Notes: a model not told the origin generated them from the sequence alone. A stretch of DNA of 64,000 nt from Escherichia coli (GCF_011045215.1 NZ_CP049201.1); one strand, 5' to 3'. Counted from the first letter of the stretch, positions 3,841-55,714 are shown. A program made the numbers and translations.

Positions 3841-3999
3841 GATTCCTCCGGTTCCTTAAAGGCAAATTAAGCGGCTGCTGTTGCTGCATTGATTAAGGGC
3901 GGCCGTAGCCGCCCTTAGTGCTTGATTACAGGACGAAACCTGCAATCTGTCAAGTAAACTCAACAAACTTCGGAATAAAAATCCCGAAGAGTCAGAGAA

Positions 4000-5673
4000 T
4001 TACTCGCCTTTAGCTGCTTTGAAAGCTTCAGCCATTGCGTTGTTGGAGAAGTTTGCATCTTCCTGTTTGTTAACAGTTGCGATTGCATCTTTCTCGTCAG
4101 CTTCGTCTTTCGCACGAACAGACAGGCTGATTGCACGGTTTTTACGATCAACGCCGGTGAATTTAGCTTCAACTTCGTCGCCAACGCTCAGAACCAGGGT
4201 AGCGTCTTCAACGCGGTCACGGGATGCTTCAGAAGCACGCAGGTAACCTTCAACGCCGTCAGCCAGTTCTACGGTTGCGCCTTTAGCGTCAACTGCAGTT
4301 ACTTTACCGGTTACGATAGCGCCTTTCTTGTTCAGAGCAACCCAGTTGTTGAACGGATCTTCTGCGAGCTGTTTAACGCCCAGGGAGATACGTTCACGTT
4401 CTGCGTCAACCTGCAGAACAACTGCAGCGATTTCGTCGCCTTTTTTGTATTCACGAACTGCTTCTTCGCCTGCAACGTTCCAGGAGATGTCAGACAGGTG
4501 AACCAGGCCGTCGATGCCGCCGTCCAGGCCGATGAAGATACCGAAGTCAGTGATAGACTTGATTTTACCTTCAACACGGTCGCCCTTGTTGTGGGTTTCC
4601 GCGAACTGCTGCCACGGGTTAGCTTTGCACTGTTTCAGACCCAGGGAGATACGACGACGTTCTTCGTCGATATCCAGAACCATAACTTCCACTACATCGC
4701 CAACGTTAACAACTTTGGACGGGTGGATGTTTTTGTTGGTCCAATCCATTTCGGAAACGTGTACCAGGCCTTCAACGCCTTCTTCGATTTCAACGAAGCA
4801 GCCGTAGTCGGTCAGGTTGGTCACGCGACCAGTCAGTTTGGTACCTTCCGGATAACGTTTAGCGATAGCTACCCACGGATCTTCGCCCAGCTGTTTCAGG
4901 CCCAGGGATACACGGGTACGTTCGCGGTCGAACTTCAGCACTTTAACAGTGATTTCGTCGCCCACGTTGACGATTTCGCTCGGATGCTTAACGCGTTTCC
5001 AGGCCATGTCAGTGATGTGCAGCAGGCCGTCAACGCCGCCCAGATCAACGAATGCACCGTAGTCAGTGAGGTTCTTAACGATACCTTTAACTTCCATGCC
5101 TTCCTGCAGGTTTTCCAGCAGCTGATCGCGCTCTGCGCTGTTTTCGGATTCGATAACGGCACGACGAGAAACAACAACGTTGTTGCGCTTCTGATCCAGC
5201 TTGATTACTTTAAATTCAAGCTCTTTGCCTTCCAGGTGCAGAGTGTCACGCACCGGACGAACGTCTACCAGAGAACCTGGCAGGAACGCACGAATACCGT
5301 TCAGCTCAACAGTGAAGCCGCCCTTAACTTTGCCGTTGATAACACCGGTAACAGTTTCAGCATCTTCGTAAGCTTTTTCCAGCGTGATCCAGGCTTCGTG
5401 ACGTTTAGCTTTCTCACGGGACAGCAGAGTTTCACCGAAGCCGTCTTCTACTGCGTCCAGAGCAACGTCAACTTCGTCACCTACCTGGATTTCCAGCTCG
5501 CCCTGGGCGTTTTTGAACTGCTCAGCCGGGATGGCGGACTCAGATTTCAGACCAGCGTCAACCAGTACTACGTCTTTGTCGATAGCAACAACAACGCCAC
5601 GAACGATAGAACCCGGGCGGGTTTCGATTTCTTTTAAGGACTCTTCAAAGAGTTGAGCAAAAGATTCAGTCAT
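4000..5673 (-). CDS. rpsA: 30S ribosomal protein S1
   Basis: 557-aa [35 protein letters not shown]... with repeated S1 domains; conserved cmk-rpsA-ihfB synteny. Confidence 0.97.
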
Positions 5674-39927: not shown

Positions 39928-40106
39928 ATGTATGAAGTACTTTGGAAGTATAAGTCCGTAACTTGTCTCGATGTAGATATACTGCACAACTTGTTTACAG
40001 TATGAGCAAACAATAATTATCATTAAAATTCTTCTTGACCGTTTTACTCCAACTCCCTATAGTAGCGCCCCGTTGCCACCCATGAGGTTTGGCAGCAAAA
40101 CAATTT

Positions 40107-40194
40107 GGTGAGGTGTCCGAGTGGCTGAAGGAGCACGCCTGGAAAGTGTGTATACGGCAACGTATCGGGGGTTCGAATCCCCCCCTCACCGCCA
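40107..40194 (+). tRNA. serW: tRNA-Ser (GGA anticodon, serW-type), 88 nt with long variable arm
   Basis: GGTGAGGTGTCCGAGTGGCTGAAGGAGCACGCCTGGAAAGTGTGTATACGGCAACGTATCGGGGGTTCGAATCCCCCCCTCACCGCCA read directly; coordinates anchored to ORF 40121, which starts at tRNA position 15. Confidence 0.9.
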
Positions 40195-40200
40195 GATTAT

Positions 40201-40238
40201 AAGCGCATGTTATTGTTTAACATGCGCTTTTTTATTTT
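40201..40238 (+). terminator. Rho-independent terminator immediately 3' of the tRNA (approximate)
   Basis: AAGCGCATGTTA-ttgtt-TAACATGCGCTT followed by TTTTTATTTT. Confidence 0.7.
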
Positions 40239-40343
40239 CCCTTTCAGACAGTATGCCATCGGGTATGCCATCTGAAACCGGTTTATATGCCCCGCGATCA
40301 TATCTTATCGGACAATTTCCGATCTTTGAGCATACTGGCAAAG

Positions 40344-41186
40344 CTATACTGCCAGCATATCAGGATAGTGTTTTGCGATAATATCATTCAGTCTGTCAAC
40401 CAGTTCTGGTTTTCTGAACGTGATATGCGCGGAGCCCTTCTTAAAATATCTGATGCTGAACATCTCATCTTCATAGTCCTCTTTACCCTGAACAGACTGG
40501 ATGTGATCATCCAGACGAAGGGTGATGTTTTCCCGGGTGTCGGGGATCGGTTTGCCGCTGAACAGATGCAGCATTCTTTCCAGATCGGCAAGTCTATCTG
40601 CCTGTTGCCCGCTGTTCAGATGAAATCCCCACCGGTCCCATCTCACCAGATTGTTGACGATAATTTTACTGCCAAATTTGCAGGGTGAATTGGTTTTGTA
40701 ATTCCAGCTCAGTCCCCTGAAAACGTTGATCACCCCTCGCTCAAACACTTCATCTTTGTTCTGGTGCAGTTGTTCAAACGTGCTCAGGATATTCGCTTCG
40801 CTGATTTCCGGAAAATTATCGTACTCCAGTGACCGGTACCATGTATCACGGGCTTGTGCATCCATTAATGACAGCATCCCTGAACGTTGCATCAGGTCAC
40901 GCCAGATTTCGCGGTCAAGGTTGCGGGTGATGGCTTTCATTGCGGTTTCCGGTTTCTCCATGAGCCAGCAGCCACAGCGAAAATCCTGTTTCATGGCCCA
41001 GTCCAGTGCGGTTTTACCTCCAATGCTTTCCGTCAGCACCGAGATTTCTGCCAGTTGCCGGATAAGCGTGTCGATTTGCAGCAGTGTACTTTTTCGTACA
41101 GCCAGAATGTGGCGGATACTGGTTGAGCAGATAACGTCCGTATGCCCGTTGACAACTTCCGGACGAGAGGCTGTGATATCAGACAT
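40344..41186 (-). CDS. Hypothetical protein, tentatively DUF4942-like, at the edge of the CP4-like module
   Basis: 280-aa ORF with no recognisable catalytic motif; first island gene after serW. The DUF assignment is from recollection, not a domain search. Confidence 0.55.
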   Translation of the reverse strand: MSDITASRPEVVNGHTDVICSTSIRHILAVRKSTLLQIDTLIRQLAEISVLTESIGGKTALDWAMKQDFRCGCWLMEKPETAMKAITRNLDREIWRDLMQRSGMLSLMDAQARDTWYRSLEYDNFPEISEANILSTFEQLHQNKDEVFERGVINVFRGLSWNYKTNSPCKFGSKIIVNNLVRWDRWGFHLNSGQQADRLADLERMLHLFSGKPIPDTRENITLRLDDHIQSVQGKEDYEDEMFSIRYFKKGSAHITFRKPELVDRLNDIIAKHYPDMLAV

Positions 41187-41282
41187 AATCGATATTCCTT
41201 TTTGCAGATAAATGAAAACGCCAGCCCTGTTCAGGCTGGCGTCAGTGGAATGAAGTCTGGTGAGTGAGATGATGAGTGAAAC

Positions 41283-41480
41283 TCACCGGTTCGGGGGCTG
41301 AAGCTGCAGTTGGCGCAGGGTACGGATATCCTCCCTGGCCTGTTCAATACAGGACAACAGGGCTGTCGAATCCGTTTTATCCTCATCGTTGTCAAAGATA
41401 ATTCCGGATTCACAGTCGATATTGTCCTGCAGCCACGCAATCAGAATATCCAGTGCGGTTTCCGTGGTTAATGATTTCAT
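41283..41480 (-). CDS. Small hypothetical protein (CP4-like module)
   Basis: ORF 41283..41525; the probable start is the internal MKSLTTETALDILIAWLQDN..., which avoids overlap with the upstream gene. Confidence 0.35.
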   Translation of the reverse strand: MKSLTTETALDILIAWLQDNIDCESGIIFDNDEDKTDSTALLSCIEQAREDIRTLRQLQLQPPNR

Positions 41481-41491
41481 GTTGTTCCTGG

Positions 41492-41980
41492 TTACCAGTT
41501 GAAAGTGGGTAAGCCCGGCAGGCATTCAGCGCTGGCATCCAGATGAATGAGACTGACGCCATAACGTCGGGTAAGTGTGACAACCAGACGACGGAACGTT
41601 TTTGACAGGCCCAGGCGCTTAAGCCGCAGAACCGGGTATGACCACGCACCGGTACGTAACAGATATCCGCTACCTGTGAAATGAATCCATTCTGATTCGC
41701 CAGTGTCATTCGTCTGATGTGATAGTGAGTACAGCCAGGCGTTGTCCTTTGCCGTGATATGCGCGGTACTGCAGCGTATGCCGGTCAGGGCCGCAGATGG
41801 TGGCGTGCGCTCTGCTGATGTCCGGTCAGATTCATCAACAACACGAAGGGAGTAGCCATTGTCGCAGGCCACGTTAATCAGTTCAGCGAGATTAACACCA
41901 TCGACGTCAACGACAATGCGCCCCATGTTCAGCGTCTGCACGTTAATACTGTCAGCTTCCAGCGTCAGGGAAAGTTTCAT
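41492..41980 (-). CDS. Hypothetical protein downstream of the cbtA-like toxin (YeeW position in CP4-type elements)
   Basis: 162-aa ORF whose ATG overlaps the stop of the upstream cbtA-like gene (ATGA-type overlap at 41977..41980). Confidence 0.5.
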   Translation of the reverse strand: MKLSLTLEADSINVQTLNMGRIVVDVDGVNLAELINVACDNGYSLRVVDESDRTSAERTPPSAALTGIRCSTAHITAKDNAWLYSLSHQTNDTGESEWIHFTGSGYLLRTGAWSYPVLRLKRLGLSKTFRRLVVTLTRRYGVSLIHLDASAECLPGLPTFNW

Positions 41981-42357
41981 TGTTTCGCCTCCGGATGCTT
42001 ACCCAGGGTAATGTTATTTACCGTTCTGTAATTGTCGCGGGTCATCAGGCCTGTCGCCCGGCGGGCCCGGAGGATATCGATGCTGTTTATTAACTGAGAG
42101 TGGGTACAGGTGCTGAATCCCGGCTGGTCAGTACGCACCAGTGCGTATTTTTCCACGAGAAAGTTCACCGCATCGCACAGTGAAATGCCGGCCTCAATAT
42201 GCTGCTCAATCACACGTTCATCAGCGAACGGTGTGTCATTCAGCGTAAGGCCGTAGTGCTGGTCCAGTAGTCGGGAGAGCAGTGTCTGCCAGATGGTGAC
42301 GGGAGACGGGCTGCGCGATGCCTCCCGTACGTGTGTATCGGGTAATGTTTTCATACT
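41977..42357 (-). CDS. cbtA: CbtA/YeeV-family toxin (inhibitor of FtsZ/MreB polymerisation)
   Basis: ORF 41977..42495; family-typical start at the internal MKTLPDTHVREASRSPSPVTIWQTLLSRLLDQHYGLTLNDTPF, giving ~126 aa. Confidence 0.8.
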   Translation of the reverse strand, partial: SMKTLPDTHVREASRSPSPVTIWQTLLSRLLDQHYGLTLNDTPFADERVIEQHIEAGISLCDAVNFLVEKYALVRTDQPGFSTCTHSQLINSIDILRARRATGLMTRDNYRTVNNITLGKHPEAKQ

Positions 42358-42443
42358 GAAGATTTTCCTGATATGAGAGATTAAATTTTGAGGAGAGTAG
42401 TGCTGTAGCGCACCGGGCCGGAGCAGACGATTATTTCGGTGGT

Positions 42444-42812
42444 TTACTTTTTCGTTTCGGGTGTCGGATAAACAGCCAGATAAACGTAACCACAACTACC
42501 GAGGGTGTCGGCTTTGCAGGTCAGCCCTTTGGCATACAGCGTGACGGTATGCTGATGGCGGGGATTCAGTTCACCGCTGGTGAGCATGAGTTCCAGTTGT
42601 TTCATCAGCAGCGGAAAGGCCTGGTCCAGATGGTACGCATCCGCGTCGCTGAACCGGCCTCTGATACCGGCGCGGTCTGCAAGGTAATGCAACCGGTTAC
42701 CCTCCTGCACCAGACGTGCTCCGAAACAAGGTGTCACGGTACAGGGCAGTCCCCACCAGGGGCGGCCGCGATTGTCGTCGGGATGAGTTGTCTCATGGAG
42801 TGTGTCTGACAC
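42444..42812 (-). CDS. cbeA: CbeA/YeeU-family antitoxin
   Basis: 122-aa ORF MSDTLHETTHPDDNRGRPWWGLPCTVTPCFGARLVQEGNRLHYLADRAGIRG... immediately upstream of the toxin gene. Confidence 0.8.
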   Translation of the reverse strand: MSDTLHETTHPDDNRGRPWWGLPCTVTPCFGARLVQEGNRLHYLADRAGIRGRFSDADAYHLDQAFPLLMKQLELMLTSGELNPRHQHTVTLYAKGLTCKADTLGSCGYVYLAVYPTPETKK

Positions 42813-42886
42813 AATAAAATCCTCACAAAAAATCAGTTAAGAATGGTCCGGTGGCAGCGATAATTCTGCTCATCATTTCTCCTGAC

Positions 42887-43108
42887 TCAGTTCAGAGTGA
42901 CGCTCATCAGCCGGACATACGGGCCAAAACTGTCCTTACGGCGTTCTGCAAACACGGCCAGCACACCGGGAATATCCTGCACTTCACGACCGGTATACGC
43001 CTCAGCACTGCCGTGCCAGCGGTATTTGCCGGTACAGAACGGAAAAAGACGGGATGCAGGATGTTGTTGGTGAATACGCATGGCTTCACCACGGGTGATA
43101 ATTTTCAT
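42887..43108 (-). CDS. yeeT: DUF987 protein (YeeT/YkfH family)
   Basis: 73-aa ORF MKIITRGEAMRIHQQHPASRLFPFCTGKYRWHGSAEAYTGREVQD... Confidence 0.7.
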   Translation of the reverse strand: MKIITRGEAMRIHQQHPASRLFPFCTGKYRWHGSAEAYTGREVQDIPGVLAVFAERRKDSFGPYVRLMSVTLN

Positions 43109-43176: not shown

Positions 43177-43653
43177 TTAAAGCAGACCGTGTTCCGCAAA
43201 GGAGAAAACCTGGTTGCCTCCGACTATCAGATGGTCCGGCACCCGGATGTCCACCAGGGCCAGCGCCTGTACCAGACGTTCGGTGATAAGCCGGTCTGCC
43301 TTACTGGGTGTGACTTCACCGGACGGATGATTGTGTGCCAGCACCACGGCTGCGGCATTGTGATACAGGGCGCGTTTAATCACTTCCCGGGGATGGACTT
43401 CCGTGCGGTTGATAGTGCCGGTGAAGAGGGTTTCACCGGCAATCAGCTGATTCTGGTTATTCAGATACAGCACCCGGAATTCTTCACGCTCCAGTCCCGC
43501 CATGTTCAGAATCAGCCATTCCCGTGCCGCATGCGTGGAGGTGAAGGCCACGCCGGGTTCATGAAGATGGCGGTCCAGGGTTTTCAGGGCCCGCTGAATG
43601 AGACTGCGCTCGCCGGGCGTCATCTCTCCGGGCAGAAAGGAAAGCTGTTGCAT
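43177..43653 (-). CDS. yeeS: RadC-like JAB-domain protein (YeeS/YkfG family)
   Basis: ORF 43177..43668; probable start MQQLSFLPGEM...; JAMM-like HNHPSG motif. Confidence 0.8.
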   Translation of the reverse strand: MQQLSFLPGEMTPGERSLIQRALKTLDRHLHEPGVAFTSTHAAREWLILNMAGLEREEFRVLYLNNQNQLIAGETLFTGTINRTEVHPREVIKRALYHNAAAVVLAHNHPSGEVTPSKADRLITERLVQALALVDIRVPDHLIVGGNQVFSFAEHGLL

Positions 43654-43668
43654 TGCCCCTGCCTCCAT

Positions 43669-44154
43669 TCAGTCGATGATGCGCATAATGGCGCTGCATT
43701 CCGGATGTTGCAGGGCGTAATCCCGCAACCGATAATAATGGACCGTCATGGCATAACACTCCGTACGACAGGCATGATGACTGTACGTCATCAGACAGGC
43801 GGCAATGCCGGCGGCTTCCGGACTCATTTCAGCGCGGTTACCGTTCATGGCATTGAACAGTACCCATGTTTCGTCATCATCGTCATCCGGTTCGGGTGCC
43901 ATAAATGCCCCGCCGTTGTTCAGGGTGTACAGATTCCAGATACCACCGCAGTAGTCTTCGCACAGACGGTCCATCCAGCCGAAGACACGGGGTTCCAGGG
44001 TCACCCACTGTGGAATGAGGCCAAAGTGCTGCGGCCAGAAGCTGATGCGCTGTTCATCAGGGACGGGAGTGGCAACCAACTGAGACTGGTTATTCCCTGA
44101 TGCAGTAGTTACGGAAACAGAAGGTGTGGTGGAGCTATGCGAAAAGGTTGTCAT
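43669..44154 (-). CDS. Antirestriction protein (ArdB/KlcA/YafX-like)
   Basis: 161-aa ORF in the family-typical position between the DUF932 gene and the RadC-like gene; acidic DDDDDE stretch. Confidence 0.7.
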   Translation of the reverse strand: MTTFSHSSTTPSVSVTTASGNNQSQLVATPVPDEQRISFWPQHFGLIPQWVTLEPRVFGWMDRLCEDYCGGIWNLYTLNNGGAFMAPEPDDDDDETWVLFNAMNGNRAEMSPEAAGIAACLMTYSHHACRTECYAMTVHYYRLRDYALQHPECSAIMRIID

Positions 44155-44245
44155 GAGATGATTCCTTATAAAAAGTAAATGAATGGAAGAATGCCTGGGG
44201 ATTGGTACAGACGTGAGTCAGGGCTGCACTTTCAGGGAAACAGCA

Positions 44246-45064
44246 TTAGCGCATGCTCTCCAGCAGCGTTTCTGCCATCACCCACAATGCGCGATTGAGC
44301 TTAATGTCCGTGTCGATGCTGTGAATGGCACGGGTGTGGATACGTTTTCCTTTAGCGCTGCGACCGGAAATTCCGCCTTTCAGCATATTCTCCTGAATGG
44401 TCTGATAAGCACTCCACAGGTCCTTACCGTAATCCTCCCTGCGTCGTGGTGTCAGAATGTCGGCGGTGGTGACGGGCTGATGTTCGTCACCATAACGGTA
44501 AGTCAGTGCCGCCTGTGCCAGCGCCTGGTGTGCCGGTGGCGGCAGAATCAGCGACTGCATGGCATCACGCTTTTCCTCAATCCGGTCAAAAACGCCCACC
44601 ACTTCGTAAGCCCCTTCAATAACTTTCTCCACCACGTCTCCCCGGTGCGGAACACGCACCTCTCCCAGAGACTGACCGCAGACGCACCCGTTCTGACAAA
44701 CGAATCTGAAGTAACCCGGCAGCATCTGGTAGCTGGAGGTACCGTCATGGGAATTGAGCAGGATGATTTCCGGGACATGCTGTCCGTTTATCTCTCCGGC
44801 CCGCCGCAGACGCAGCATGTGTTTGGTATACCCCCGGCGGCCCGGGTCACGTACGCGGGTCTGGCAGGCGAAGAAGGGCTGAAAGCCCTCCCGCTGCAGA
44901 CTTTCCAGCACGGTGATGGTGGGGATATACGTATAGCGTTCACTGCGGGAGGTATGCCGGTCTTCCCCAAAAATACCGGGTACATAGTGCATCAGCTCTT
45001 CATGTGTCAGCGGACGGTCACGGCGTATCTGGTTCGCATAACCAAAACGACTTGCTAATCGCAT
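44246..45064 (-). CDS. DUF932-domain protein (YfjQ/YafZ family)
   Basis: 272-aa ORF MRLASRFGYANQIRRDRPLTHEELMHYVPGIFGEDRHTSRSERYTYIPT... Confidence 0.75.
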   Translation of the reverse strand: MRLASRFGYANQIRRDRPLTHEELMHYVPGIFGEDRHTSRSERYTYIPTITVLESLQREGFQPFFACQTRVRDPGRRGYTKHMLRLRRAGEINGQHVPEIILLNSHDGTSSYQMLPGYFRFVCQNGCVCGQSLGEVRVPHRGDVVEKVIEGAYEVVGVFDRIEEKRDAMQSLILPPPAHQALAQAALTYRYGDEHQPVTTADILTPRRREDYGKDLWSAYQTIQENMLKGGISGRSAKGKRIHTRAIHSIDTDIKLNRALWVMAETLLESMR

Positions 45065-45338: not shown

Positions 45339-45794
45339 TCAGTTAACGTTTTTTCCGGAAACGGTAATTAGCAGTGGATGGTAGTCCTGGGGATCGAAAA
45401 CCGATAACGGCAGACTGACACGATGGCCGTTACTTTCTTCAGTTGCTTTAATGATTTCGGTTGTGGCGACATTTTCCACGCACTCCGTTTCCAGAAATGC
45501 GTCTGTGGTTCGCGTGGCATCACTGTCACCAAAGGCTTCCGTTTCCATTTTTCTGGTCACCAGCCTCTGACCATATTTGTCTTTGAGTTGCAGAGTGATG
45601 GTGAGGGGGCCAAATCCTTCTCCGTTTCCGCCATTATCCAGCCGGAACTGGTAAGCACAAATATTTCCCGGGAGCCATATCGTATCTGTATTGCGTATAC
45701 TGATGTAACGTTGATCCTGTGCCCGGAGTGGGGCAGACCACGTTAACCCCAGAATGACGCCGGTAATAATGCAGGTTTTGAACAGGTGAATCAT
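45339..45794 (-). CDS. Putative secreted/lipoprotein-like small protein (CP4-like module)
   Basis: 151-aa ORF with N-terminal signal peptide MIHLFKTCIITGVILGLTWSAPLRA. Confidence 0.45.
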   Translation of the reverse strand: MIHLFKTCIITGVILGLTWSAPLRAQDQRYISIRNTDTIWLPGNICAYQFRLDNGGNGEGFGPLTITLQLKDKYGQRLVTRKMETEAFGDSDATRTTDAFLETECVENVATTEIIKATEESNGHRVSLPLSVFDPQDYHPLLITVSGKNVN

Positions 45795-45869
45795 GGTATT
45801 TACCTCTCTGAGTCATGACGATGACACTGACAAATCAGGTGATAAAACGTAAAAGGTGCAGAATACTCG

Positions 45870-48392
45870 TTATGCCGGTAACTCCGGGGGTAATGCTTCT
45901 TCCAGCCGGTTAACCATATTGCCGAGATGGGATGCATCATATTCCATGACGGGGCGTTGCCTGATGATACTGACCACCAGTGGTTTGATTAACATATTGG
46001 TCGCGGCCCGTTGTTGTATACCGGCGGCGAAAATGATCTCCAGAGCATTCTGATCGATAACACGGGCCAGATTCGCGTTCAGATTTTCTGTTTCATGTCC
46101 GGTCAGCAGGAAACTGCCGGCAAGCCATGTCACCTGTTCCTGAATCATTGCCAGAATTTTGACGCGATCTTCTTCAACCAGCGCTCCGGCAATTTTTCCT
46201 GATACAGCGGAGGCAATCATTCCCCCCAGAACACCGCCAACCACACGCCCTGTCAGTGCACCAAATGGTCCCAGTGGACTGAACAGTATCCCGCCCGCCA
46301 CTGACCCGACAGCTCCACCTGCCACACCGGAAGATGCCACGGCAAGATTCCTGATGAACTGCGTACCGGAGATCCGTCCCCGCAACATTTTGATCATGTC
46401 AGGGCCGGTTGTGACAGCTACCAGTGCCAGAGATGTCACCAGCGTACCCTTCATCACTTTGTTCAGGGCACTGATATTTCCTGCACCGGTCCCCTTCTGA
46501 AGAGCCAGTCGGACAGTCGGGCTGGCAGTCGAAAAATCAATGTGCTTCAGCATACCCTGAACAACACTGAGCCGGTGGAGTTGCTGGGTTGTGACGTAGA
46601 CAGCCAGTGTGCGGGTGAAGGTTTTTCCTGCCTGGACAGCAGCTGTCTGCAGAGCAGCATCGCGATCGCCGGTGCTGAGCCAGAAGACCGATGCCGTCAG
46701 GGCAAAACTGATCCCTCCGGCCGCCAGACTGACAACCGAACCCTCGGCAATATCATAAGTGACCGATTCGATGGTCCCGAACCGGGTGATATTACGGGCC
46801 TGAGTATAAGTCAGATGTCCCCGACGAATCAGCCGGGACGCTTCTGCGGGATCGATTACACCGGGTACTTTACCTTCGCGGATCTTATTCCTCATGGTTT
46901 CAACAGCGCCGGCATACTGATCACGGGGGACTTCCAGTTGCATGGGGCCATTATTTCCCATGTAACGATACTGTCCGTTTTGTCCGTCGAATGCCGCACC
47001 GACGCTACGGGCTGCAGTTGAACAATATTTCGTCTGGATTTCTGTTCCGCTGACCAGTCTGTCTGCTCCATTTCTGGCATTATTATCACCGAGGATCCGT
47101 GCGTTTTTCAGACGGATTCTGTCGACAATATGGTTTCCCCGTTCAGCGGCAAACCCATGTCCCTGCCCTCCGGAAGCAAACATTTTCTCATTTGTACTCC
47201 AGGTTTCCGGCAGTTTCATGAGAATCAGACCATTCGCCGTTGCATCGGAAATAAAACTGTTGTAGGGGCGTTCATAAATTTCCTGACACAGTGTTTCTGT
47301 TTCGCGACAAAGAGAGGAGCAGTACCATTCCGGATCCGGCTTATGATTTTCCGGGGCATGATGTACTTCTGTCAGCCCGCAGGAGGCACAGACACGAAGC
47401 TCATCCACGTGATGGAATGATACAAAACGGCGACCTTCTGAAAAGGGATACCAGTCACCGCCGTCCAGGCAACGATCGAGAAAATCGTCATTCGCTTCCG
47501 GTGATAAATTCAGGCGGTTCCGGAAGAGTGTTTTCAGTTCATCAGGTGTGAATGACAGGTTCTCTTTCAACTGTTCGTTAAACCCTGCCATGTTTCTTTC
47601 ATACCAGGCATTGTTCAGTAACCAGTTTCCGTCTGCCAGTTCAAATTCCCTCAGCTCTCCCCGGGAAATCCGTTGAGAAATAAGCGTCAGCCAGATGCGC
47701 TCCGTCAGTGAGTCAGGAAGGCTGTAATCGTTTTGCAAACTGGTCAGCCACGATTTACTGTTGAGCACCGGTTGTTCTTCCAGTGTCTGGCTGATGGCAC
47801 AGGTCAGTTTTTTCAGCGCCTGGATTTGGCTGGCCGCCCATAGCAGCGTCACTAATGCAGCCAGCCAGTACAACAACCCGCCCCACCACATCAGTGACGG
47901 TGAAATATCGTACTGTAACGCGATCAATGGTGCGCATGCAGAACAAGCCATAAGGAAAAAGGCAGTATAAAAACAGCAGTAATATCCGTTAATTTCCTTG
48001 CTGATATCTTCTGGTGTGATCCCGTTCTGCTGAATGTTTTTGATCTGCAGGGGAACAGCCAGCAGACCACCGGCGAGAGCGGTGGTCAGAATAAATTTCA
48101 CGGAGTCAAAGGTGTGAGACTCCAGCGCAATATGTTTACCATCAAGTCCCCACATGAAGCTGATGATCATTCCGGCAATCGTCAGAAATACGCCTGCCAG
48201 CCAGCGAATATGGAACAACCGGGTTATGCGTTCGGTGATATAGCCAGCCAGTAAGGCCGGGCCGAACAGACACAGCAATATGAGCCCTGCCAGCGCAGAA
48301 GCCGTGCTGATTAATGCTCTGAACAAAAGGCGAAGAATGGCAAATCCTGCGATCAGCAGGATCAGCGCGCCGACTATCTGTAACATAGTCAC
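45870..48392 (-). CDS. yeeR: YeeR-like large inner membrane protein
   Basis: 840-aa ORF with multiple TM segments at both ends; located between the Ag43 gene and the DUF932/antirestriction genes as in CP4-44-type elements. Confidence 0.7.
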   Translation of the reverse strand: MTMLQIVGALILLIAGFAILRLLFRALISTASALAGLILLCLFGPALLAGYITERITRLFHIRWLAGVFLTIAGMIISFMWGLDGKHIALESHTFDSVKFILTTALAGGLLAVPLQIKNIQQNGITPEDISKEINGYYCCFYTAFFLMACSACAPLIALQYDISPSLMWWGGLLYWLAALVTLLWAASQIQALKKLTCAISQTLEEQPVLNSKSWLTSLQNDYSLPDSLTERIWLTLISQRISRGELREFELADGNWLLNNAWYERNMAGFNEQLKENLSFTPDELKTLFRNRLNLSPEANDDFLDRCLDGGDWYPFSEGRRFVSFHHVDELRVCASCGLTEVHHAPENHKPDPEWYCSSLCRETETLCQEIYERPYNSFISDATANGLILMKLPETWSTNEKMFASGGQGHGFAAERGNHIVDRIRLKNARILGDNNARNGADRLVSGTEIQTKYCSTAARSVGAAFDGQNGQYRYMGNNGPMQLEVPRDQYAGAVETMRNKIREGKVPGVIDPAEASRLIRRGHLTYTQARNITRFGTIESVTYDIAEGSVVSLAAGGISFALTASVFWLSTGDRDAALQTAAVQAGKTFTRTLAVYVTTQQLHRLSVVQGMLKHIDFSTASPTVRLALQKGTGAGNISALNKVMKGTLVTSLALVAVTTGPDMIKMLRGRISGTQFIRNLAVASSGVAGGAVGSVAGGILFSPLGPFGALTGRVVGGVLGGMIASAVSGKIAGALVEEDRVKILAMIQEQVTWLAGSFLLTGHETENLNANLARVIDQNALEIIFAAGIQQRAATNMLIKPLVVSIIRQRPVMEYDASHLGNMVNRLEEALPPELPA

Positions 48393-48506
48393 TCCGTGAT
48401 GAATATCATGTTATTGTTAATGCCAGCGAATGTGGCGTTGAATATCCGTTGCGCCGGTCCGGGTCCCGATCATGATGACCGGGACCACAGAGAGGCGATG
48501 GTTCTG

Positions 48507-51356
48507 TCAGAAGGTCACATTCAGCGTGGCCTGACCGTTATAGCCTTCGGCGCTGTTGCCGCTGACACTGTGGGCATAACCGGCCTGAACGCCCAGGGTG
48601 ATATTTTCCCGGACACGGGCTTCCAGTCCGGCCTGCAGGTCCAGTGACGTGCCATTCCGGGACGGTGAAAACGTCATGTTACTGCCGGCGGCGGCTGTAC
48701 CCATGCTCATGTCACCCCGGGAGCTGAAAGTGCGGATAACAGAAGGCTGTACCCACCAGTTCACCGGCAGTTCACTCACACGGTGTTTTGCACTGTCGCG
48801 CAGAGTGTCACGGGATGAGGTGCCTTCGCCAAAAGTCATATCGTTGTGGCTGCCCAGACGGAAGCCGGCACGCACATGTTGTGCACTGCCATGCCCGAAC
48901 TTCACATAACCGGCGTTATCCTGGCCGTCATCCAGGGAGAGCCCCTGCCAGGTGTACTGCAGTTGTGGCTCCAGCATCAGGTTGTCAGTGATACTGAAGG
49001 GCAGACCGGTTTCCAGTGAGCCCAGCCAGCCCCAGCCCCGGGCGCGGAAGTCGTTATTGTCCGATGACGCTTTCATGCTGTGGCGGGTTCCCTGGGCCAC
49101 AATGTCAGCCCACAGGCCGGAGGACGTGTGTACCAGATTCAGGTATCCGCCCAGGCTGCCGGCATCATCCCGGACCGTGCCGGCACGGGAGCCGTCATCA
49201 TCCTTAACATCAACGGAAGAATGGCCAGCAGCACCATACACTCCTGTCGTCAGTGACATACCGGCAACCTCTGTTCTCAGCAGGTCACCCTCCAGACGGA
49301 CGAGGCCATAGCTGCCGCTGCTTTCCGGCGTGGCCCCACGGGCAATACCACCGTTGTTATCGTGCCCGAGATGACCGCCCTGAATGCTGAGACGGACGCT
49401 GTTATTTTCACCGCTTACACCGGTCTGATGGCTGCGGGAACCTGCCAGAATCCGGTCATAGTCCATTGCCTGTGTCAGCATGGAGGCATACAGGGGGACT
49501 TCAGCACGATAAGCATTTTCACTGCGCAGGTACCAGTCTTCATCGCTGTCACGGTTCAGGGTGTAGTTAAAGGCGCCGGCCTGAAGCGGGCGACTCAGGG
49601 CAAACGCACCTTCTTCTGTGGTAGCACCATTCTGTGCATCCACAACCCGGATACCCTGTCCGGAGGTTGCCACCCCGAGGTTACTGTTTCCGACATTTGT
49701 AAACGCAAGCCAGGTTTTGCCGGTTGCCTGACCACCATTAATCACCAGCTGGTCAGAGGCATTACTGCCATCAAGGCTGACACGCATATTGATGGTGCCG
49801 CCCTGGCCGGTGAGGTTCGTGGTGGTTAGTTTATGGAACGTTACCGGGGAGTTACTTTTTGCAACAGCACGGCTCAGCGCGGCATCCGGTGTCGTCTGAT
49901 TATCAAAGTGAATCTCTCCTGCGTTAATAATATCGCCGGTACTGACCACATCACCATTCAGTACCATACTGGCGCCTTTACTGAGCTGTGTTCTGCCACT
50001 CAGACTTCCCCCGGCAGCCAGCGTCAGTGTTCCACGATGTCCGACAGTGGTGTTGCTGGCCAGTCCTCCGGCATTAACCGTAAAGCTGCCGCCATTTTCC
50101 AGCAGCAGGCCGCTGGCCTGACCGGATATGCCATCAATACTGAACTTACCGCTGGCATTGGTCCCCTCAACAGTGGCACCACTGTCTGCAATCAGGGCAC
50201 CACCGGATGTCATGGTGACATCTGTTGCCTTACCACCGGCAGACACTGCCAGGGTACCGCCGTCATCCACCAGTGTTTTCCAGGCTGAATGGCCCTCCAG
50301 TACATCCAGGCGACCGCCGGACTCCAGAACAACGCCGTCAGCCTTACCGTTTTCCACTGTGAAATTCCCCAGGCGGTTTGTGCCGGTGACAGTTGCAGCA
50401 GTACTGGTAACCAGTGCACCGCCCGTGTTCTGGGTGACTGCAGTGGCTTCCCCGCCGGCATGTACCCTCAGTTCACCGTTCTGATTTATGGTGGTGTTAC
50501 CGGCAGCGCCACCGGCCTTAACAACCTGCCAGCCCCCCTCGTTAATTACCGTGTTCAGCGCCAGTCCGTCCTTGTGCACATACTGGTAACCGCCATTCAG
50601 TGTGGTATTCAGGGCCCTTCCGTGTACCGACTGGTCACCACCTGCGTAAATGAGAGTGTCACGGGCTATCCCGGAAGATAAGATAATCTGCCGTCCATTT
50701 TTGTTGATGGTGGTGGATTCTGCTGTTCCCTGGACCTTCTGACCCGTGTACGAGTTGTCAGAATCCGGGCCGCCTTCTGCGCCGGTGTTGATGATGGTTC
50801 CTGTTGCCAGCCCGCCACTTTTAACGCTCTGGTAACCGTCGCGGTTGATAATTGTACCGGTGGCAACCCCGCCCTCATGAACCCACTGCTCGCCTCTGTT
50901 ATTCAGCGTGGTGTTCACCGCCAGCCCGTTCAGGCTCTGTCCCCCGCCGTCACGAATAACCGTATCACTGGCTGTTCCCCCCTCCAGCACGACCTGACGA
51001 CCATTTGTGGTGACAGTGGTGTTTCCGGCTATCCCGCCATTCTGTATCCATTGCCCACCGGTGTTTTCTTCACTGTCCGGCCCCAGTTCCAGCCCGGTAC
51101 TGATGGTCATTCCGTTGGCCGTACCGAGGACAATCTGGTTGTCATGATTTGTCAGTGTTCCGCCGCTCATGGTTTCTCCCGCCTGTACAACCGTGTCAGC
51201 AGCCAGTGCCGGGACTGACGTGACAGCAGCAAGAGACAGCGCAACCGCCACACCGGTGCGTTTTCCCCGTGAGCGGGCCAGTTCGGAGGCCACCACCAGG
51301 GTGCCCGTAATGTGATTCCATACCAGCCTGTAGCTGGTGTTCAGATGTCGTTTCAT
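48507..51356 (-). CDS. flu: Antigen 43-type self-associating autotransporter adhesin
   Basis: ORF 48507..51431; real start at the internal MKRHLNTSYRLVWNHITGTLVVASELARSRGKR (extended autotransporter signal peptide); passenger repeats; C-terminal beta-barrel ending ...GYNGQATLNVTF. Confidence 0.9.
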   Translation of the reverse strand: MKRHLNTSYRLVWNHITGTLVVASELARSRGKRTGVAVALSLAAVTSVPALAADTVVQAGETMSGGTLTNHDNQIVLGTANGMTISTGLELGPDSEENTGGQWIQNGGIAGNTTVTTNGRQVVLEGGTASDTVIRDGGGQSLNGLAVNTTLNNRGEQWVHEGGVATGTIINRDGYQSVKSGGLATGTIINTGAEGGPDSDNSYTGQKVQGTAESTTINKNGRQIILSSGIARDTLIYAGGDQSVHGRALNTTLNGGYQYVHKDGLALNTVINEGGWQVVKAGGAAGNTTINQNGELRVHAGGEATAVTQNTGGALVTSTAATVTGTNRLGNFTVENGKADGVVLESGGRLDVLEGHSAWKTLVDDGGTLAVSAGGKATDVTMTSGGALIADSGATVEGTNASGKFSIDGISGQASGLLLENGGSFTVNAGGLASNTTVGHRGTLTLAAGGSLSGRTQLSKGASMVLNGDVVSTGDIINAGEIHFDNQTTPDAALSRAVAKSNSPVTFHKLTTTNLTGQGGTINMRVSLDGSNASDQLVINGGQATGKTWLAFTNVGNSNLGVATSGQGIRVVDAQNGATTEEGAFALSRPLQAGAFNYTLNRDSDEDWYLRSENAYRAEVPLYASMLTQAMDYDRILAGSRSHQTGVSGENNSVRLSIQGGHLGHDNNGGIARGATPESSGSYGLVRLEGDLLRTEVAGMSLTTGVYGAAGHSSVDVKDDDGSRAGTVRDDAGSLGGYLNLVHTSSGLWADIVAQGTRHSMKASSDNNDFRARGWGWLGSLETGLPFSITDNLMLEPQLQYTWQGLSLDDGQDNAGYVKFGHGSAQHVRAGFRLGSHNDMTFGEGTSSRDTLRDSAKHRVSELPVNWWVQPSVIRTFSSRGDMSMGTAAAGSNMTFSPSRNGTSLDLQAGLEARVRENITLGVQAGYAHSVSGNSAEGYNGQATLNVTF

Positions 51357-51573
51357 CAGCTTTTCCTTACAGAGGGTGAATAAAAAAGCCGGTACCCACA
51401 AATGTGGATACCGGCAGGTACAAAACAGCATGGTCAGATAAAGTGGTTTTTCCCGGACATAAATGCTTCCCCTCTCTCATCCGCCAGAGAAGTATCAGTC
51501 CGTTGTGTGCAATTCCGTTCTGCATGATGAAGAGATTCAGCTGCCTTTTCGCAGGCCATTAACCACTACAAAC

Positions 51574-51609
51574 GATCGATACTAACGATCGATACCTGTT
51601 TTATCGATC
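51574..51609. promoter_or_regulatory. Ag43 phase-variation switch: three closely spaced GATC sites in the putative OxyR operator (approximate)
   Basis: aaacGATCgatactaacGATCgatacctgttttatcGATCgtttt lies ~220-250 bp upstream of the flu start codon. Confidence 0.75.
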
Positions 51610-51727
51610 GTTTTATTCTATTGATAGCAGGGCAGTCACGCAAGAGAAACAGGAGGGTATGAGGGGTTTGTATCATGTTTTCAGTTGGTTAACGCAATGT
51701 AATCAGGCATTTCCCCTGGCAGAGTGT

Positions 51728-52600
51728 TCAGAAGAAAATCCAGTTCCATACCGCACGGGCAACAGAGACCACCGTGTCACGAACAGCGCGCAGGGCCGTA
51801 CGGACAACAGAGGCAACACAGACGCTCTCCGCTGTGTCAAATATCCGGTCCACCGCACCGGTAAACTGTTCACGGGCCTGAGAGCGGACAGATTCCGTGC
51901 GCAGCTCGTCCTGCAGTCGGGTCATCAGGGGACTGGCGGCATGGTCGGGAAGCGCTGTCATGAGCGCACTGACCAGCGTATCCAGTTCCCAGCCGGTGCG
52001 GGCCGATACGGCCACAACCGGATGTGCGGGCCGGAACAGACGGAATACCGCCTCCGTTTTTTCGCGAATGTTCCGTGCCTGTGCGGGAGAGGGCTGAATG
52101 CCGGCCATATCCCATTCATGGCAGGGCTCCGTTTTGTCGGCCTGCGTCACCACAAACAGCACCTGCTGATGTCCCCGGTGCAGGATGTGTCGCCAGAAAT
52201 ACTCATCCACAGACAGGGCACGGTCATCGGCTTTAATCAGCCACAGTACCAGGTCAAGTTCAGGCAGAATGTCACGGTACAGGGCTTCATACTCTGCATC
52301 CCTGTCCCGGCTCTCGCCCACCCCGGGCAGGTCAGTGATAACCATGCTGTGACCGTGGCCACTCAGACGGAAGCGCTGCACTTCCCGGGTGCCGGCGTGA
52401 ACATCACTGACCGGGGTGACCTCCCCCTGAAACAGTGCATTACAGAGTGAGGATTTACCGGCCCCGCTTTTACCCATAATGCCAATCACGGGTTCGTGAC
52501 TGGTGAGTTTGCGCAGATGTTCCAGGATGTGACGGGAAAGTGAGTAAGGCAGGGAGGAGAGCGGTTTTTCAATTGCCTCAATGGCATCAGACGGATTCAT
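51728..52600 (-). CDS. yeeP: YeeP/YkfA/YfjP-family GTPase
   Basis: ORF 51728..52639; P-loop GKSGAGKSS and DLPG G-motifs; probable start MNPSDAIEAIEKPLS. Confidence 0.8.
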   Translation of the reverse strand: MNPSDAIEAIEKPLSSLPYSLSRHILEHLRKLTSHEPVIGIMGKSGAGKSSLCNALFQGEVTPVSDVHAGTREVQRFRLSGHGHSMVITDLPGVGESRDRDAEYEALYRDILPELDLVLWLIKADDRALSVDEYFWRHILHRGHQQVLFVVTQADKTEPCHEWDMAGIQPSPAQARNIREKTEAVFRLFRPAHPVVAVSARTGWELDTLVSALMTALPDHAASPLMTRLQDELRTESVRSQAREQFTGAVDRIFDTAESVCVASVVRTALRAVRDTVVSVARAVWNWIFF

Positions 52601-52930
52601 ACATGTATTCCCGGTGAAAAAAGACAAAACCCCGCGCACCGGAAAGGTGGCGGGGGATTCACGGAGATAATATCTGCCTGAAATTATTTAGGATGCAGGT
52701 ATCTTCAGATAATCATACCTCCAGAATTTTGTTCTTAATAGTTGAGTAGTGGTATTTGGTTTCCCTGAGAGAATATAAAGGTGAATCATACTGTATTGAG
52801 TTTGATTCTATTTGTACTGAGACAGGTATCTTCATGATTATAATCAAAAGTCGGGTGGATTGGTCTGGCGCTCATTATTTTTTCGAATAAACTCACTAAT
52901 TATTGTAACCATCCCAGAGGAGATGATTTT

Positions 52931-53251: not shown

Positions 53252-54276
53252 ATGTGTGTGATTCATAGACATCGTTTCAATTTTCTCAGCTCAAGTTCAA
53301 GCTTGTAATTCTGTTCCTGAATATGCTCCTTATTGGGCTGATAGCTTGCGTGAACGGCATCCGAGTATGGCGTTTTCTCAGCAAGTTCAAAGTAGCGCTC
53401 CATCGGCGTTTTACCGTTGTGAGCGCAATGAGGACGTTCCCAGTTATAGTAATGCTGCCATTCTGCCAGTCGCTCCTCCAAGTTATCAGTAGCGATATCT
53501 ACGGTAGCGTAAAACTCAGCTTTGTCTGTCTTTTGGGAGCGTTCAACTTTGCCATTAAGATGGGGTGATGCTGGTTTATTTGGACGAAACTTGATGCCGT
53601 ATTCTTTCAGTCTTTCCTGCACCTTAACGGCAAAAAACTCTCTTCCCCGGTCTGTCTGAAAGCGCTGAATCGGGAACGGCATTTCTTCAATAAAACAATC
53701 AATGAAATCCAGTGTGTTTGTAGTCGTGCGACGGGAATAGAGCCTCAGAACTCTGTAGCGAGTGCAATCATCAACAGATGTGTACTGATATAAGCCGGGG
53801 CCAATTTTACAGGTATCCATCTGAACCCAATCACCGGGAACAGGGCGTTCGTAGCGAATGAAATCAGCTTTACGCCGGAGTTTAACAACAGGTTTAACCT
53901 GATTCTGGCAAAGAACTTTGTGGATTGTTGCCATTGCAAGTGAGATTGAATGAAGTCGTTTTAACTCGCTTTGAATCCGTCTTGCACCCAGATTTCGCTG
54001 GGAACGTAACTCCAGAATCAGAGCGACTTCGCAAGTGCCGGTTTTCGTTGATGGCGAACGCTTAGGGCGACGGCTGTGGCTTTCCAGACCAGCGATGCCC
54101 TGAGCCAGATATCTGCGCCACCATTTACGCAATGTGGGGCGGGAAATACCGCAGCGACGGCATACGAACCCCGCGTCACCAGACGTTTCATAGAGTTTTA
54201 CCCACTGTAGCCGCTGCTGAATTTCCCTGTTCATAGTAAGGCATTATAGTGAAACGATGTCTATGAATCACACAAG
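53252..54276 (-). mobile_element. Compact ~1.0 kb insertion sequence with one DDE transposase gene and ~24-bp perfect terminal inverted repeats (tentatively IS481-like)
   Basis: Terminal repeats TGTGTGATTCATAGACATCGTTTC and its reverse complement flank the transposase ORF; family assignment is tentative. Confidence 0.75.
53263..54234 (-). CDS. DDE (rve-type) transposase
   Basis: 323-aa ORF with N-terminal HTH (CGISRPTLRKWWRRY) and an integrase-core-like central region. Confidence 0.85.
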   Translation of the reverse strand: MNREIQQRLQWVKLYETSGDAGFVCRRCGISRPTLRKWWRRYLAQGIAGLESHSRRPKRSPSTKTGTCEVALILELRSQRNLGARRIQSELKRLHSISLAMATIHKVLCQNQVKPVVKLRRKADFIRYERPVPGDWVQMDTCKIGPGLYQYTSVDDCTRYRVLRLYSRRTTTNTLDFIDCFIEEMPFPIQRFQTDRGREFFAVKVQERLKEYGIKFRPNKPASPHLNGKVERSQKTDKAEFYATVDIATDNLEERLAEWQHYYNWERPHCAHNGKTPMERYFELAEKTPYSDAVHASYQPNKEHIQEQNYKLELELRKLKRCL

Positions 54277-54425
54277 TAAAGAACCTTGCAGAGGCGTTCG
54301 AGCATTATAACGAATGGCATCCGCATAGTGCGCTGGGTTATCGCTCGCCACGGGAATATCTACGACAGCGGACCTGTAATGGGTTAAGTGATAACAGATG
54401 TCTGGAAATATAGGGGCAAATCCAG
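54277..54425 (-). mobile_element. IS2 right-end remnant (3' end of the IS2 transposase reading frame plus terminal repeat), truncated by the adjacent IS
   Basis: Encodes ...[39 protein letters not shown] and ends ...TGGAAATATAGGGGCAAATCCA, recognised as the IS2 terminus. Confidence 0.6.
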
Positions 54426-54598
54426 CGTAATACCAACCATATAATCTCTAGGAGGAGTATTTTTACAATAGTAAGAACTATCATACATCCCCCTACAGAT
54501 TCAGAGAAGAAAAAGAATTAATTATCGTCAAAACTTTCGACAAATCACATCATTAACATGATAACAACTAACAAAGGACAAGCTAATGAAAGATGTGA

Positions 54599-55714
54599 TT
54601 ACTGCATCAATACGGTAGCTATCGCACTGCCAGAAAACGATCCAGCATCAATTCTGTTTGTATCTATAACCCTATATTGTGACGTTATATCAAATGTTCT
54701 ACTTCCACTGATAACCCCCGAAAATTCCTTCGCACCATCAACAGTCAATGTGCACTTTCCATTATCTCCACATCGAGTTACATTCCCCCCTTCCCCTGAT
54801 ATTAGATTACTACCTTTAATGGTTATATCTACTCTGGTTGGTGAACTGCAATTAATCACTAATCCGGCCTTAGCAAAGTGTCCATCACGAGCCTGGGCTG
54901 ATGTTATTGCATTATGATTTATTGATATATCTTTATTCCCTGCTATATTACAGGATGCCAGAACATTCACTCTTACAGGGGCATATCTGTTCTCCATATT
55001 AACTACTGCAGACTCAACACCCCCACCATCAGAACAATATTTTTCCCCCTTATACCATTCCTCAGATCCTATTTTTAGCGGAATGTTTAAATCATATATT
55101 CCGGCTAAAGCACTGCCCCTCTCTATCGTTACCCTCAATTTGGTACTCTGAAAGTTGTTATATACCAGAGGATATCTGTATCCCGGGACAATTTCTCCTT
55201 CTGGGAATGGTCTGTCATACCAATCATAGTTATCATAAACACCAACGTAAGTCTGATAACCATTATAAATACCACGTTTATTATACCCCCCGGAAATAAT
55301 CTGAATACTCCCTTTCAGACCATTACCCAATCGTATGTTATTACTATCAACTGGCATCGCAATCCATGTTGCCTGACTCTTTGAGCCTTTACCCGAAAGA
55401 ATCTTAACCGGCGAGCTAACAGGCACATTATGACGCTGGACCCAGCTAACAACTGCAGACGTTCTTGGTGCCAGACCGGGCAATACAATATCAAAATAAC
55501 TTGCTGTGTTTCCTGAGGAAATTGTTACATCCGGAATAGTAACATTGTTACCATCTAACTGCCACAATATTTGCATATCACGACAAGGTTCATATGCAAA
55601 TGAACAACCTGATATAAAAACAAAAAGATAAATTATTTTCTCACACCACATACCTTTCACACCTTGTATATCCCCAGACCAGAAAATCCCTGAGCGCATA
55701 AATAACCCTCTCAC
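54599..55714 (-). CDS. Putative secreted lipoprotein, beta-rich, unknown function
   Basis: 371-aa ORF; likely start at internal MWCEKIIYLFVFISGCSF (lipobox ISGC; start ~55651); Gly/Ser/Asn/Tyr-rich; AT-rich codon usage unlike the core genes. Confidence 0.6.
   Translation of the reverse strand: MRGLFMRSGIFWSGDIQGVKGMWCEKIIYLFVFISGCSFAYEPCRDMQILWQLDGNNVTIPDVTISSGNTASYFDIVLPGLAPRTSAVVSWVQRHNVPVSSPVKILSGKGSKSQATWIAMPVDSNNIRLGNGLKGSIQIISGGYNKRGIYNGYQTYVGVYDNYDWYDRPFPEGEIVPGYRYPLVYNNFQSTKLRVTIERGSALAGIYDLNIPLKIGSEEWYKGEKYCSDGGGVESAVVNMENRYAPVRVNVLASCNIAGNKDISINHNAITSAQARDGHFAKAGLVINCSSPTRVDITIKGSNLISGEGGNVTRCGDNGKCTLTVDGAKEFSGVISGSRTFDITSQYRVIDTNRIDAGSFSGSAIATVLMQ

Follow-up and report, generated by a model that had tools for sequence, protein, structure and literature searches.

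The DUF4942, DUF957 and DUF5983 genes between serW and cbtA in an Escherichia coli island: a facultative trio with relatives in plasmid leading regions

Three minus-strand genes lie between the tRNA gene serW and a cbtA-family toxin gene at the edge of an Escherichia coli genomic island. We propose, with the balance for and against about even, that they are facultative establishment or anti-defence genes, of the type found in plasmid leading regions and seemingly derived from conjugative plasmids, and not a working part of the toxin-antitoxin pair beside them. The analysis covers a stretch of 64,000 nucleotides (GCF_011045215.1 NZ_CP049201.1), referred to here as the window. The three families, DUF4942, DUF957 and DUF5983/YeeW, belong to the most often repeated E. 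coli genes without a known function, and DUF4942 is also carried by thousands of conjugative resistance plasmids (IncI and IncL/M pOXA-48 type). An establishment or anti-defence role for them, if real, would matter for the way in which islands and resistance plasmids pass the defences of a recipient.

Results

Three genes occupy the island edge between serW and cbtA

The initial annotation had placed three ORFs between serW and the toxin gene, and the ORF list, ARAGORN and Pfam bear this out. The ORF list gave minus-strand frames of 280, 80 and 162 aa, the second of which we read as 65 aa (see below). The features of the locus are as follows:

40107-40194, plus strand: serW, tRNA-Ser(GGA), the island integration site (ARAGORN; K-12 alignment)
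40195-40343: island-side junction, with a hairpin at 40201-40229 and a tandem repeat of GATGGCATAC, present twice, at 40251-40272 (minus strand)
40344-41186, minus strand: DUF4942 gene, 280 aa (Pfam, RefSeq)
41217-41243, minus strand: candidate terminator-like hairpin between DUF957 and DUF4942, 11 pairs with a weak T tail (consensus scan)
41283-41480, minus strand: DUF957 gene, 65 aa (RefSeq length, conserved ATG, codon-position pattern)
41492-41980, minus strand: DUF5983/YeeW gene, 162 aa (Pfam, both domains)
41977-42354, minus strand: cbtA-family toxin gene, 125 aa (Pfam CbtA_toxin, E 1.6e-60; 90% identity to K-12 CbtA)
42444-42812, minus strand: cbeA/yeeU-family antitoxin gene, 122 aa (Pfam CbeA_antitoxin, E 1.2e-54)
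42887-43108, minus strand: DUF987 (Pfam)
43177-43668, minus strand: RadC/JAB (Pfam)
43669-44154, minus strand: antirestriction protein (Pfam)
44246-45064, minus strand: DUF932 (Pfam)

IrmA is also among the genes upstream of the trio, listed after DUF932 (Pfam).

The K-12 sequence aligned identically through the 3′ end of serW and diverged directly after it. Since K-12 homology ends exactly at this point, DUF4942 is the first island gene on that side, in agreement with the earlier placement of the trio at the tRNA-proximal edge. No att repeat of the tRNA 3′ end was found inside the 64-kb window, so that the island extends past position 64000. The junction hairpin and tandem repeat, both shared with a Citrobacter island at tRNA-Asp and missing from K-12, may represent arm-type sites for a recombinase, or else a terminator. 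Downstream of the block, 12 of 60 cross-species loci scanned likewise had an opposite-strand tRNA gene, and in 11 of these 12 it was ~100-400 nt from the last block gene, as it is in the window.

The stretch from the tRNA to cbeA (window positions 40000-42900) was covered to at least 80% in 3143 of 5426 complete E. coli genomes, with a median of four matching places per genome, a count to which tRNA or toxin-antitoxin genes alone contribute in part. The serW locus of E. coli 1303 is 96% identical to the window; RefSeq names its genes DUF4942, DUF957 and DUF5983, and DUF905 is present in that island. In O157 genomes the stretch was found at 92% identity, in copies that presumably lie in tellurite-resistance islands (TAI) at serW/serX, which we take to be relatives of the island studied here.

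The three genes are conserved as proteins

Full-length orthologues of the three genes in other genera shared 57-67% protein identity, and nucleotide differences from the orthologues were concentrated at the third codon position in each gene: 0.28/0.24/0.56 at positions 1/2/3 for DUF4942, 0.20/0.10/0.44 for DUF957 and 0.10/0.07/0.20 for DUF5983. This pattern indicates that all three are under purifying selection, and by this measure they are genuine genes and not chance ORFs. Protein searches returned near relatives in the hundreds to thousands, under the names DUF5983, DUF4942, DUF957 or Aec77-79. Since thousands of E. coli genomes already carry annotations of all three, none of the genes is new. 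The label "uncharacterised" that they had been given holds for function but not for family: the set is ordinary and already annotated, and its families have names.

A Pfam search of the locus matched DUF4942, DUF5983_N together with the DUF5983 C-terminal domain, and CbtA_toxin. The 280-aa protein, described earlier as DUF4942-like, is a clear member of that family (PF13708; E 1.6e-69, 233.9 bits, cut-off 25); its residues 87-276 span model positions 1-190 of 190, and it consists of a helical N-terminal region followed by the DUF4942 domain, with no methyltransferase half. We looked for signs of a DNA methyltransferase in this protein, and Pfam returned DUF4942 alone while direct reading found no PP[YFW] of the (D/N)PP(Y/F/W) motif. 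Its AlphaFold2 model, like that of DUF5983, was of moderate confidence, with a pLDDT of 79.7.

The 162-aa protein shares up to 96% identity with proteins annotated as DUF5983 family protein and contains two domains, an acidic N-terminal one (PF25638, DUF5983_N; pI 4.2; E 1.3e-30, 105.2 bits, cut-off 27) and a basic C-terminal one (PF19419; E 8e-22, 77.8 bits, cut-off 27). The AlphaFold2 model reached a pLDDT of 77.4 overall and >90 in the C-terminal domain. An exhaustive search for DUF5983 gave 209 cluster representatives, many of them ~100 aa long and consisting of the C-terminal domain alone. Conserved motifs in this domain are CSTAHIT..D, EWIH.TG.GYL.RL and LK..G.SK..R, and its last residues are FDW. 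Two large repeat proteins that matched DUF5983, P0366 and P0382, were judged to be chance motif resemblances. The acidic N-terminal domain was seen only in cbtA-linked proteins, and homology between it and the N-terminal parts of the plasmid proteins was unsupported (hhalign E 0.05).

For the DUF957 gene, the 80-aa reading (41283-41525) is an over-extension, as the RefSeq length of 198 nt and a conserved ATG favour 65 aa. This ATG, at 41480, is preceded by AGGA, lies 11 nt past the DUF5983 stop and is kept in 7 orthologues; the "DUF957 domain-containing protein" that RefSeq places in the E. coli 1303 serW locus is also 198 nt long. The product is acidic (pI 4.2) and 78-94% identical to proteins named "DUF957 domain-containing protein", with homologues also named Aec78. 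No Pfam model matched the 65-aa protein, and its homologues have no precomputed Pfam domain, which gives the codon-position evidence particular weight for DUF957. A 2026 preprint argues that the AntiFam "spurious" entry ANF00264, located beside DUF5983, is a real protein, which we infer to be DUF957, and suggests a programmed frameshift joining DUF5983 to DUF957. We rejected such a frameshift at this locus: DUF957 has a conserved ATG of its own, both the gap to the DUF5983 stop (11-30 nt) and the relative frame (2, 1 or 0) differ between orthologues, and no X XXY YYZ slippery site was seen when the 34-nt overlap was read directly.

Searches with PADLOC gave 0 matches, with no anti-defence family, and NCBIfam likewise gave 0. 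Solved structures searched by sequence yielded 0 matches for the DUF4942, DUF957 and DUF5983 proteins, and no solved fold was matched by the structure models.

DUF5983 is coupled to cbtA, and the trio is facultative

The initial annotation had described the 162-aa gene as start/stop coupled to the toxin gene, and we found this coupling in an ATG/TGA overlap: the DUF5983 ATG (41980-41978) overlaps the cbtA TGA (41979-41977) in gcgaaacaATGAaac, caATGAaa. GGAGG is located 7 nt upstream of the DUF5983 ATG, and the two genes are on the same strand with no terminator between them (consensus scan). DUF5983 is thus adjacent to the toxin gene and, from this arrangement, predicted to be co-expressed with it. 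The ATGA overlap suggests production matched to that of the toxin which, together with an N-terminal domain found only beside cbtA, speaks against an establishment function.

We then looked for homologues of the nine block genes in 80 loci with CbtA homologues from other Enterobacterales species; downstream counts refer to the 74 cases in which cbtA is followed by 2.5 kb of sequence or more, and upstream counts to 81 cases. Upstream of cbtA the block was near-constant (CbeA in 78/81, RadC in 77/81), and DUF932-antirestriction-RadC/JAB-DUF987 had the same order in the 80 loci. After cbtA we observed:

DUF5983: 13/74, always with DUF4942
DUF957: 6/74, only where DUF5983 was present
DUF4942: 32/74, 19 of them without DUF5983; 17 of these 19 start within 150 nt of cbtA
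none of the three: 42/74

Where present, DUF5983 started 0-38 nt past cbtA in all 13 cases. Conservation of the ORFs next to cbtA homologues in other genomes was the test that the initial annotation had set for its reading, and a third toxin-antitoxin component does poorly by it: the array is common within E. coli (the 3143 genomes above) and facultative in other Enterobacterales.

The gene behind cbtA in K-12 is a yeeW stub of 64 aa that keeps the N-terminal domain alone, and no DUF4942, DUF957 or DUF5983 gene lies behind ykfI or ypjF, so that an intact copy of any of the three is absent at all three K-12 CbtA-family pairs. Neither DUF5983 nor DUF957 is consistently present with the toxin. 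The 13/74 linkage and the K-12 pairs without intact copies indicate that DUF5983 is not a general or necessary component of the toxin-antitoxin system.

The same families recur in plasmid leading regions

The DUF5983 C-terminal domain does not occur only together with the toxin: tblastn detected it in 255 plasmids, mostly without cbtA, of which 222 were typed conjugative or mobilizable. Full-length DUF4942 homologues (35-44% identity) were found in 4925 plasmids, 4005 of them typed conjugative. We inspected the gene contexts in about ten plasmid records. As oriT itself is unannotated in these records, its position was deduced from the nikA/mobA-relaxase genes, and the established leading-region layout of ColIb-P9/R64 was used to place it. 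In seven plasmid loci and one metagenomic contig the homologues occupied a leading-region position, on the side opposite the relaxase.

In the inspected plasmids, the DUF5983 C-terminal domain was encoded by one of the last genes ahead of mobA/nikA and the relaxase, in most cases following DUF932. Enterobacter pEh7_3 has the order psiB, psiA, hok, N-6 methylase, DUF5983, one opposite-strand hypothetical gene, mobA, and a Serratia plasmid has psiB, psiA, higBA, DUF932, DUF5983, mobC, mobA. The metagenomic contig has DUF5983 and DUF932 upstream of NikA and a relaxase, and Erwinia pEB102 has DUF5983 between an ArdC-like peptidase plus DUF1281 and an N-6 methylase plus relaxase. DUF4942 occupies similar places: an IncI plasmid carries it ~650 bp from nikA, between the deduced oriT and ardA, psiA/psiB and ssb, and IncL/M pOXA-48-type and related plasmids carry it among JAB/RadC-like, antirestriction and ssb genes, upstream of mobA and the relaxase. 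Both families meet in a Yersinia ruckeri plasmid, psiB-psiA-...-DUF4942-DUF932-DUF5983-(one opposite-strand hypothetical gene)-mobA-traI, whose DUF4942 protein is 44% identical to that of the window (E 1e-80). The neighbours of the plasmid homologues include ssb, psiB, ardA/klcA, methylases and toxin-antitoxin genes, and the block in the window itself contains an antirestriction protein, RadC and a toxin-antitoxin pair (Pfam).

DUF932, DUF5983 and DUF4942 of the island block thus turn up again, along with the antirestriction protein, RadC and DUF905, in leading regions of plasmids without cbtA. Genes for anti-defence, methyltransferases and toxin-antitoxin systems, as well as uncharacterised ones, are enriched in leading regions (PMC11541004).

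Among phages and phage-plasmids, the DUF4942 domain makes up the N-terminal half of 460-562-aa proteins annotated as DNA methyltransferases, and their C-terminal part gave a weak, sub-threshold match to a methyltransferase model. As judged from this architecture, DUF4942 corresponds to the non-catalytic half of phage DNA methyltransferases.

Discussion

DUF4942, DUF957 and DUF5983/YeeW form the optional distal end of a conserved DUF932-antirestriction (ArdB/KlcA type)-RadC/JAB-DUF987-CbeA-CbtA block, which in Enterobacterales occupies one end of CP4-like islands integrated at tRNA genes. In the reading that we propose, the island block would be the functional equivalent of a leading region, whose establishment genes would act when the DNA of the element enters a new cell, by protecting it or countering host defences. 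In such a programme DUF4942 might act on DNA without methylating it, or help a separate methylase, and DUF5983 and DUF957 could be small early-acting factors. That shared families in a similar array mean a shared role, and beyond it any specific activity, is an inference.

A wider form of this proposal is that the whole block from DUF932 to DUF4942 is the leading region of an oriT-only island mobilised by helper conjugative elements, that DUF4942, DUF5983 and DUF957 have an anti-defence or establishment role which has gone unrecognised and are common to islands, plasmids and phages, and that the N-terminal domain of DUF5983 links toxin output to that programme. We put this forward tentatively, as a possibility that falls well short of even. 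The tellurite-resistance islands (TAI) of O157:H7 are reported to possess just an oriT and to travel with the help of conjugative elements (preprint 10.64898/2026.01.13.699239). An establishment role, if true, would support conjugative movement of CP4-like islands, and the link to plasmid leading regions offers a concrete, testable lead.

The initial annotation had raised the possibility that the 162-aa gene is a third toxin-antitoxin component, and its tight coupling to cbtA is the part of that idea that stands. In this reading DUF5983/YeeW, perhaps with DUF957, would be a lineage-specific third component of CbtA/CbeA that modulates the toxin as a second neutraliser, chaperone or regulator. 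The ATGA overlap with its internal Shine-Dalgarno sequence, found as an overlap also in K-12 cbtA-yeeW, would fit such a role, as would the 0-38 nt spacing in 13/13 cross-species cases and the confinement of PF25638 to cbtA-linked proteins; a guilt-by-association survey paired CbtA_toxin with DUF5983 (PMC10790755), and a preprint reports constant adjacency to cbtA/cbeA. However, DUF5983 accompanies only 13 of 74 cbtA homologues, K-12 CbtA has a 64-aa stub and YkfI and YpjF have nothing, and plasmids that have no cbtA carry the conserved C-terminal domain. DUF5983 is moreover always found with DUF4942, a family of plasmids and phages that can also follow cbtA on its own. The K-12 pairs also reportedly behave as two-gene systems, as Brown and Shaw are said to have found in 2003, Masuda et al. 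in 2012 and Heller et al. in 2017. As a general rule a third component is unlikely on this distribution, and in its lineage-specific form too we consider it unlikely, although the cbtA-specific N-terminal domain of DUF5983 may have a modulating role.

The phage proteins point in another direction, in which DUF4942 would be the DNA-recognition or accessory subunit of a split orphan methyltransferase that protects the DNA of the element together with a separate catalytic subunit. DUF4942 is fused there upstream of the weak, sub-threshold methyltransferase-like region, some sources call its homologues "restriction methylase", and in plasmids a short "N-6 DNA methylase" before DUF932-DUF5983 fills the slot that DUF4942 has in the Yersinia ruckeri plasmid. 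Yet no methyltransferase gene adjoins DUF4942 in the window, where the next feature is the tRNA; the 280-aa protein has neither a methyltransferase Pfam match nor the (D/N)PP(Y/F/W) motif; DUF4942 showed no similarity to the short plasmid methylase; and many DUF4942 plasmids have no methylase among the neighbours shown. We regard a split methyltransferase as quite unlikely. It is also conceivable that the three genes are functionless passengers slowly decaying at the island edge, given their frequent loss (42/74 loci with none of the three), the many truncated database copies and the stubs that are all K-12 retains. This we hold to be very unlikely, as the reading frames are intact across genera, substitutions fall mainly at third codon positions, and homologues persist at a fixed position in thousands of conjugative plasmids.

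Set beside known systems, the facultative establishment or anti-defence genes proposed here have relatives of several kinds. The phrog_6263 proteins of phage SSU5, Aeromonas phage 2_D05 and Pseudomonas phage PSA-2T share the DUF4942 domain at 21-28% identity; unlike these, the protein in the window stops after DUF4942 and has no C-terminal methyltransferase region. As in tripartite toxin-antitoxin systems, the third gene here would be co-transcribed and translationally coupled with the toxin, but most homologous systems do not have it, and its main domain is also met where there is no toxin gene. The leading regions of IncI1 ColIb-P9/R64, IncL/M pOXA-48 and MOBP plasmids of Serratia and Yersinia resemble the island in being same-strand arrays. 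In these plasmids oriT, relaxase, ssb and psiB adjoin the array and there is no cbtA/cbeA, whereas no oriT or relaxase was identified within the 64-kb window, the rest of the island lying outside it; the plasmid homologues are transcribed toward oriT and the genes of the window toward the island end. The three K-12 CP4 modules are closest in layout: CP4-44 (yeeS-yeeT-cbeA-cbtA-yeeW) has RadC, DUF987, antitoxin and toxin with the same 4-nt cbtA-yeeW overlap, CP4-6 (ykfG-ykfH-yafW-ykfI) has the same gene order with its toxin end abutting a tRNA gene, and CP4-57 (lfgB-ypjJ-yfjZ-ypjF) has the same RadC, DUF987, antitoxin, toxin order. All that these modules have of the trio is the 64-aa yeeW stub, with DUF957 and DUF4942 both missing, whereas in the window the extension is complete with all three genes.

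A small gene next to the two-domain DUF5983 gene

The conserved start of the DUF957 gene is the ATG at 41480, giving a product of 65 aa; the 80-aa ORF (41283-41525) runs over the end of the DUF5983 gene. The coding pattern of the DUF957 gene is clear. It had no match among the Pfam models, and a preprint describes an AntiFam 'spurious' entry at its position. Elsewhere, an 80-aa hypothetical gene lies directly before a ~188-aa two-domain DUF5983 protein on a metagenomic contig (L004, 554-796) and on an Enterobacter plasmid (L007, 6388-6630). These two genes had no Pfam match.

In plasmid leading regions, the slot preceding DUF932-DUF5983 holds either DUF4942 or a short 'N-6 DNA methylase' of 276-277 aa (L103, the Yersinia ruckeri plasmid pYR10, 3797-9373; L007; locus L102). 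The two look like positional alternates there; sequence similarity between DUF4942 and the short plasmid methylase was sought and not found.

The search with DUF5983 also returned large repeat proteins, P0366 (531 aa) and P0382 (2703 aa), that match its residues ~53-118 many times. P0366 carries repeats of a motif of the form DTGD.SW.VYENTGSGF. These matches probably reflect a chance resemblance to the DUF5983 motif EWIH.TG.GYL. Two long ORFs opposite genes of the block are likely to be shadow ORFs, not true genes:

43189-44100, + strand, 303-aa ORF opposite the RadC/antirestriction genes
44183-45058, + strand, 291-aa ORF opposite the DUF932 gene

The junction beside serW and the rest of the island

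Two elements were found in the island-side junction next to serW (40195-40343):

40201-40229, hairpin with a 12-bp stem
40251-40272, tandem repeat (GATGGCATAC x2)

A Citrobacter island located at tRNA-Asp (L035/L036) keeps both; K-12 lacks them, as do islands at tRNA-Met and tRNA-Arg. A role as recombinase arm sites, or as some other cis element of the island, is possible.

The remainder of the island (45339-52639) is CP4-44-like. It is followed at 53263-63758 by several insertion-sequence genes, with an EAL-domain gene and an AraC-type regulator in between. The island interior looks mosaic.

Genes beyond the block
45339-45794, IrmA
45870-48392, 840-aa protein in the yeeR position, without Pfam match
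48507-51431, Ag43/AIDA-type autotransporter
51728-52639, YeeP-like GTPase
53263-54234, rve integrase-core transposase
56798-57730, EAL-domain gene
57834-58475, AraC-type regulator
60208-61029, rve integrase-core transposase
63009-63758, IS21 IstB

Comparison with K-12

The K-12 counterpart yeeW (L012, the CP4-44 locus, 3941-4135) encodes 64 aa, has only the N-terminal DUF5983_N domain left and still overlaps cbtA by 4 nt. A short distance past it lies the end of the CP4-44 prophage. The antirestriction and RadC-like genes of the block currently go by the names lfgA and lfgB in K-12 (CP4-57, L018 3920-4869). LfgB is reported to be a protease with the antitoxin MqsA as a substrate (PMC10846083). 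This points to host proteins as targets of some genes in the block.
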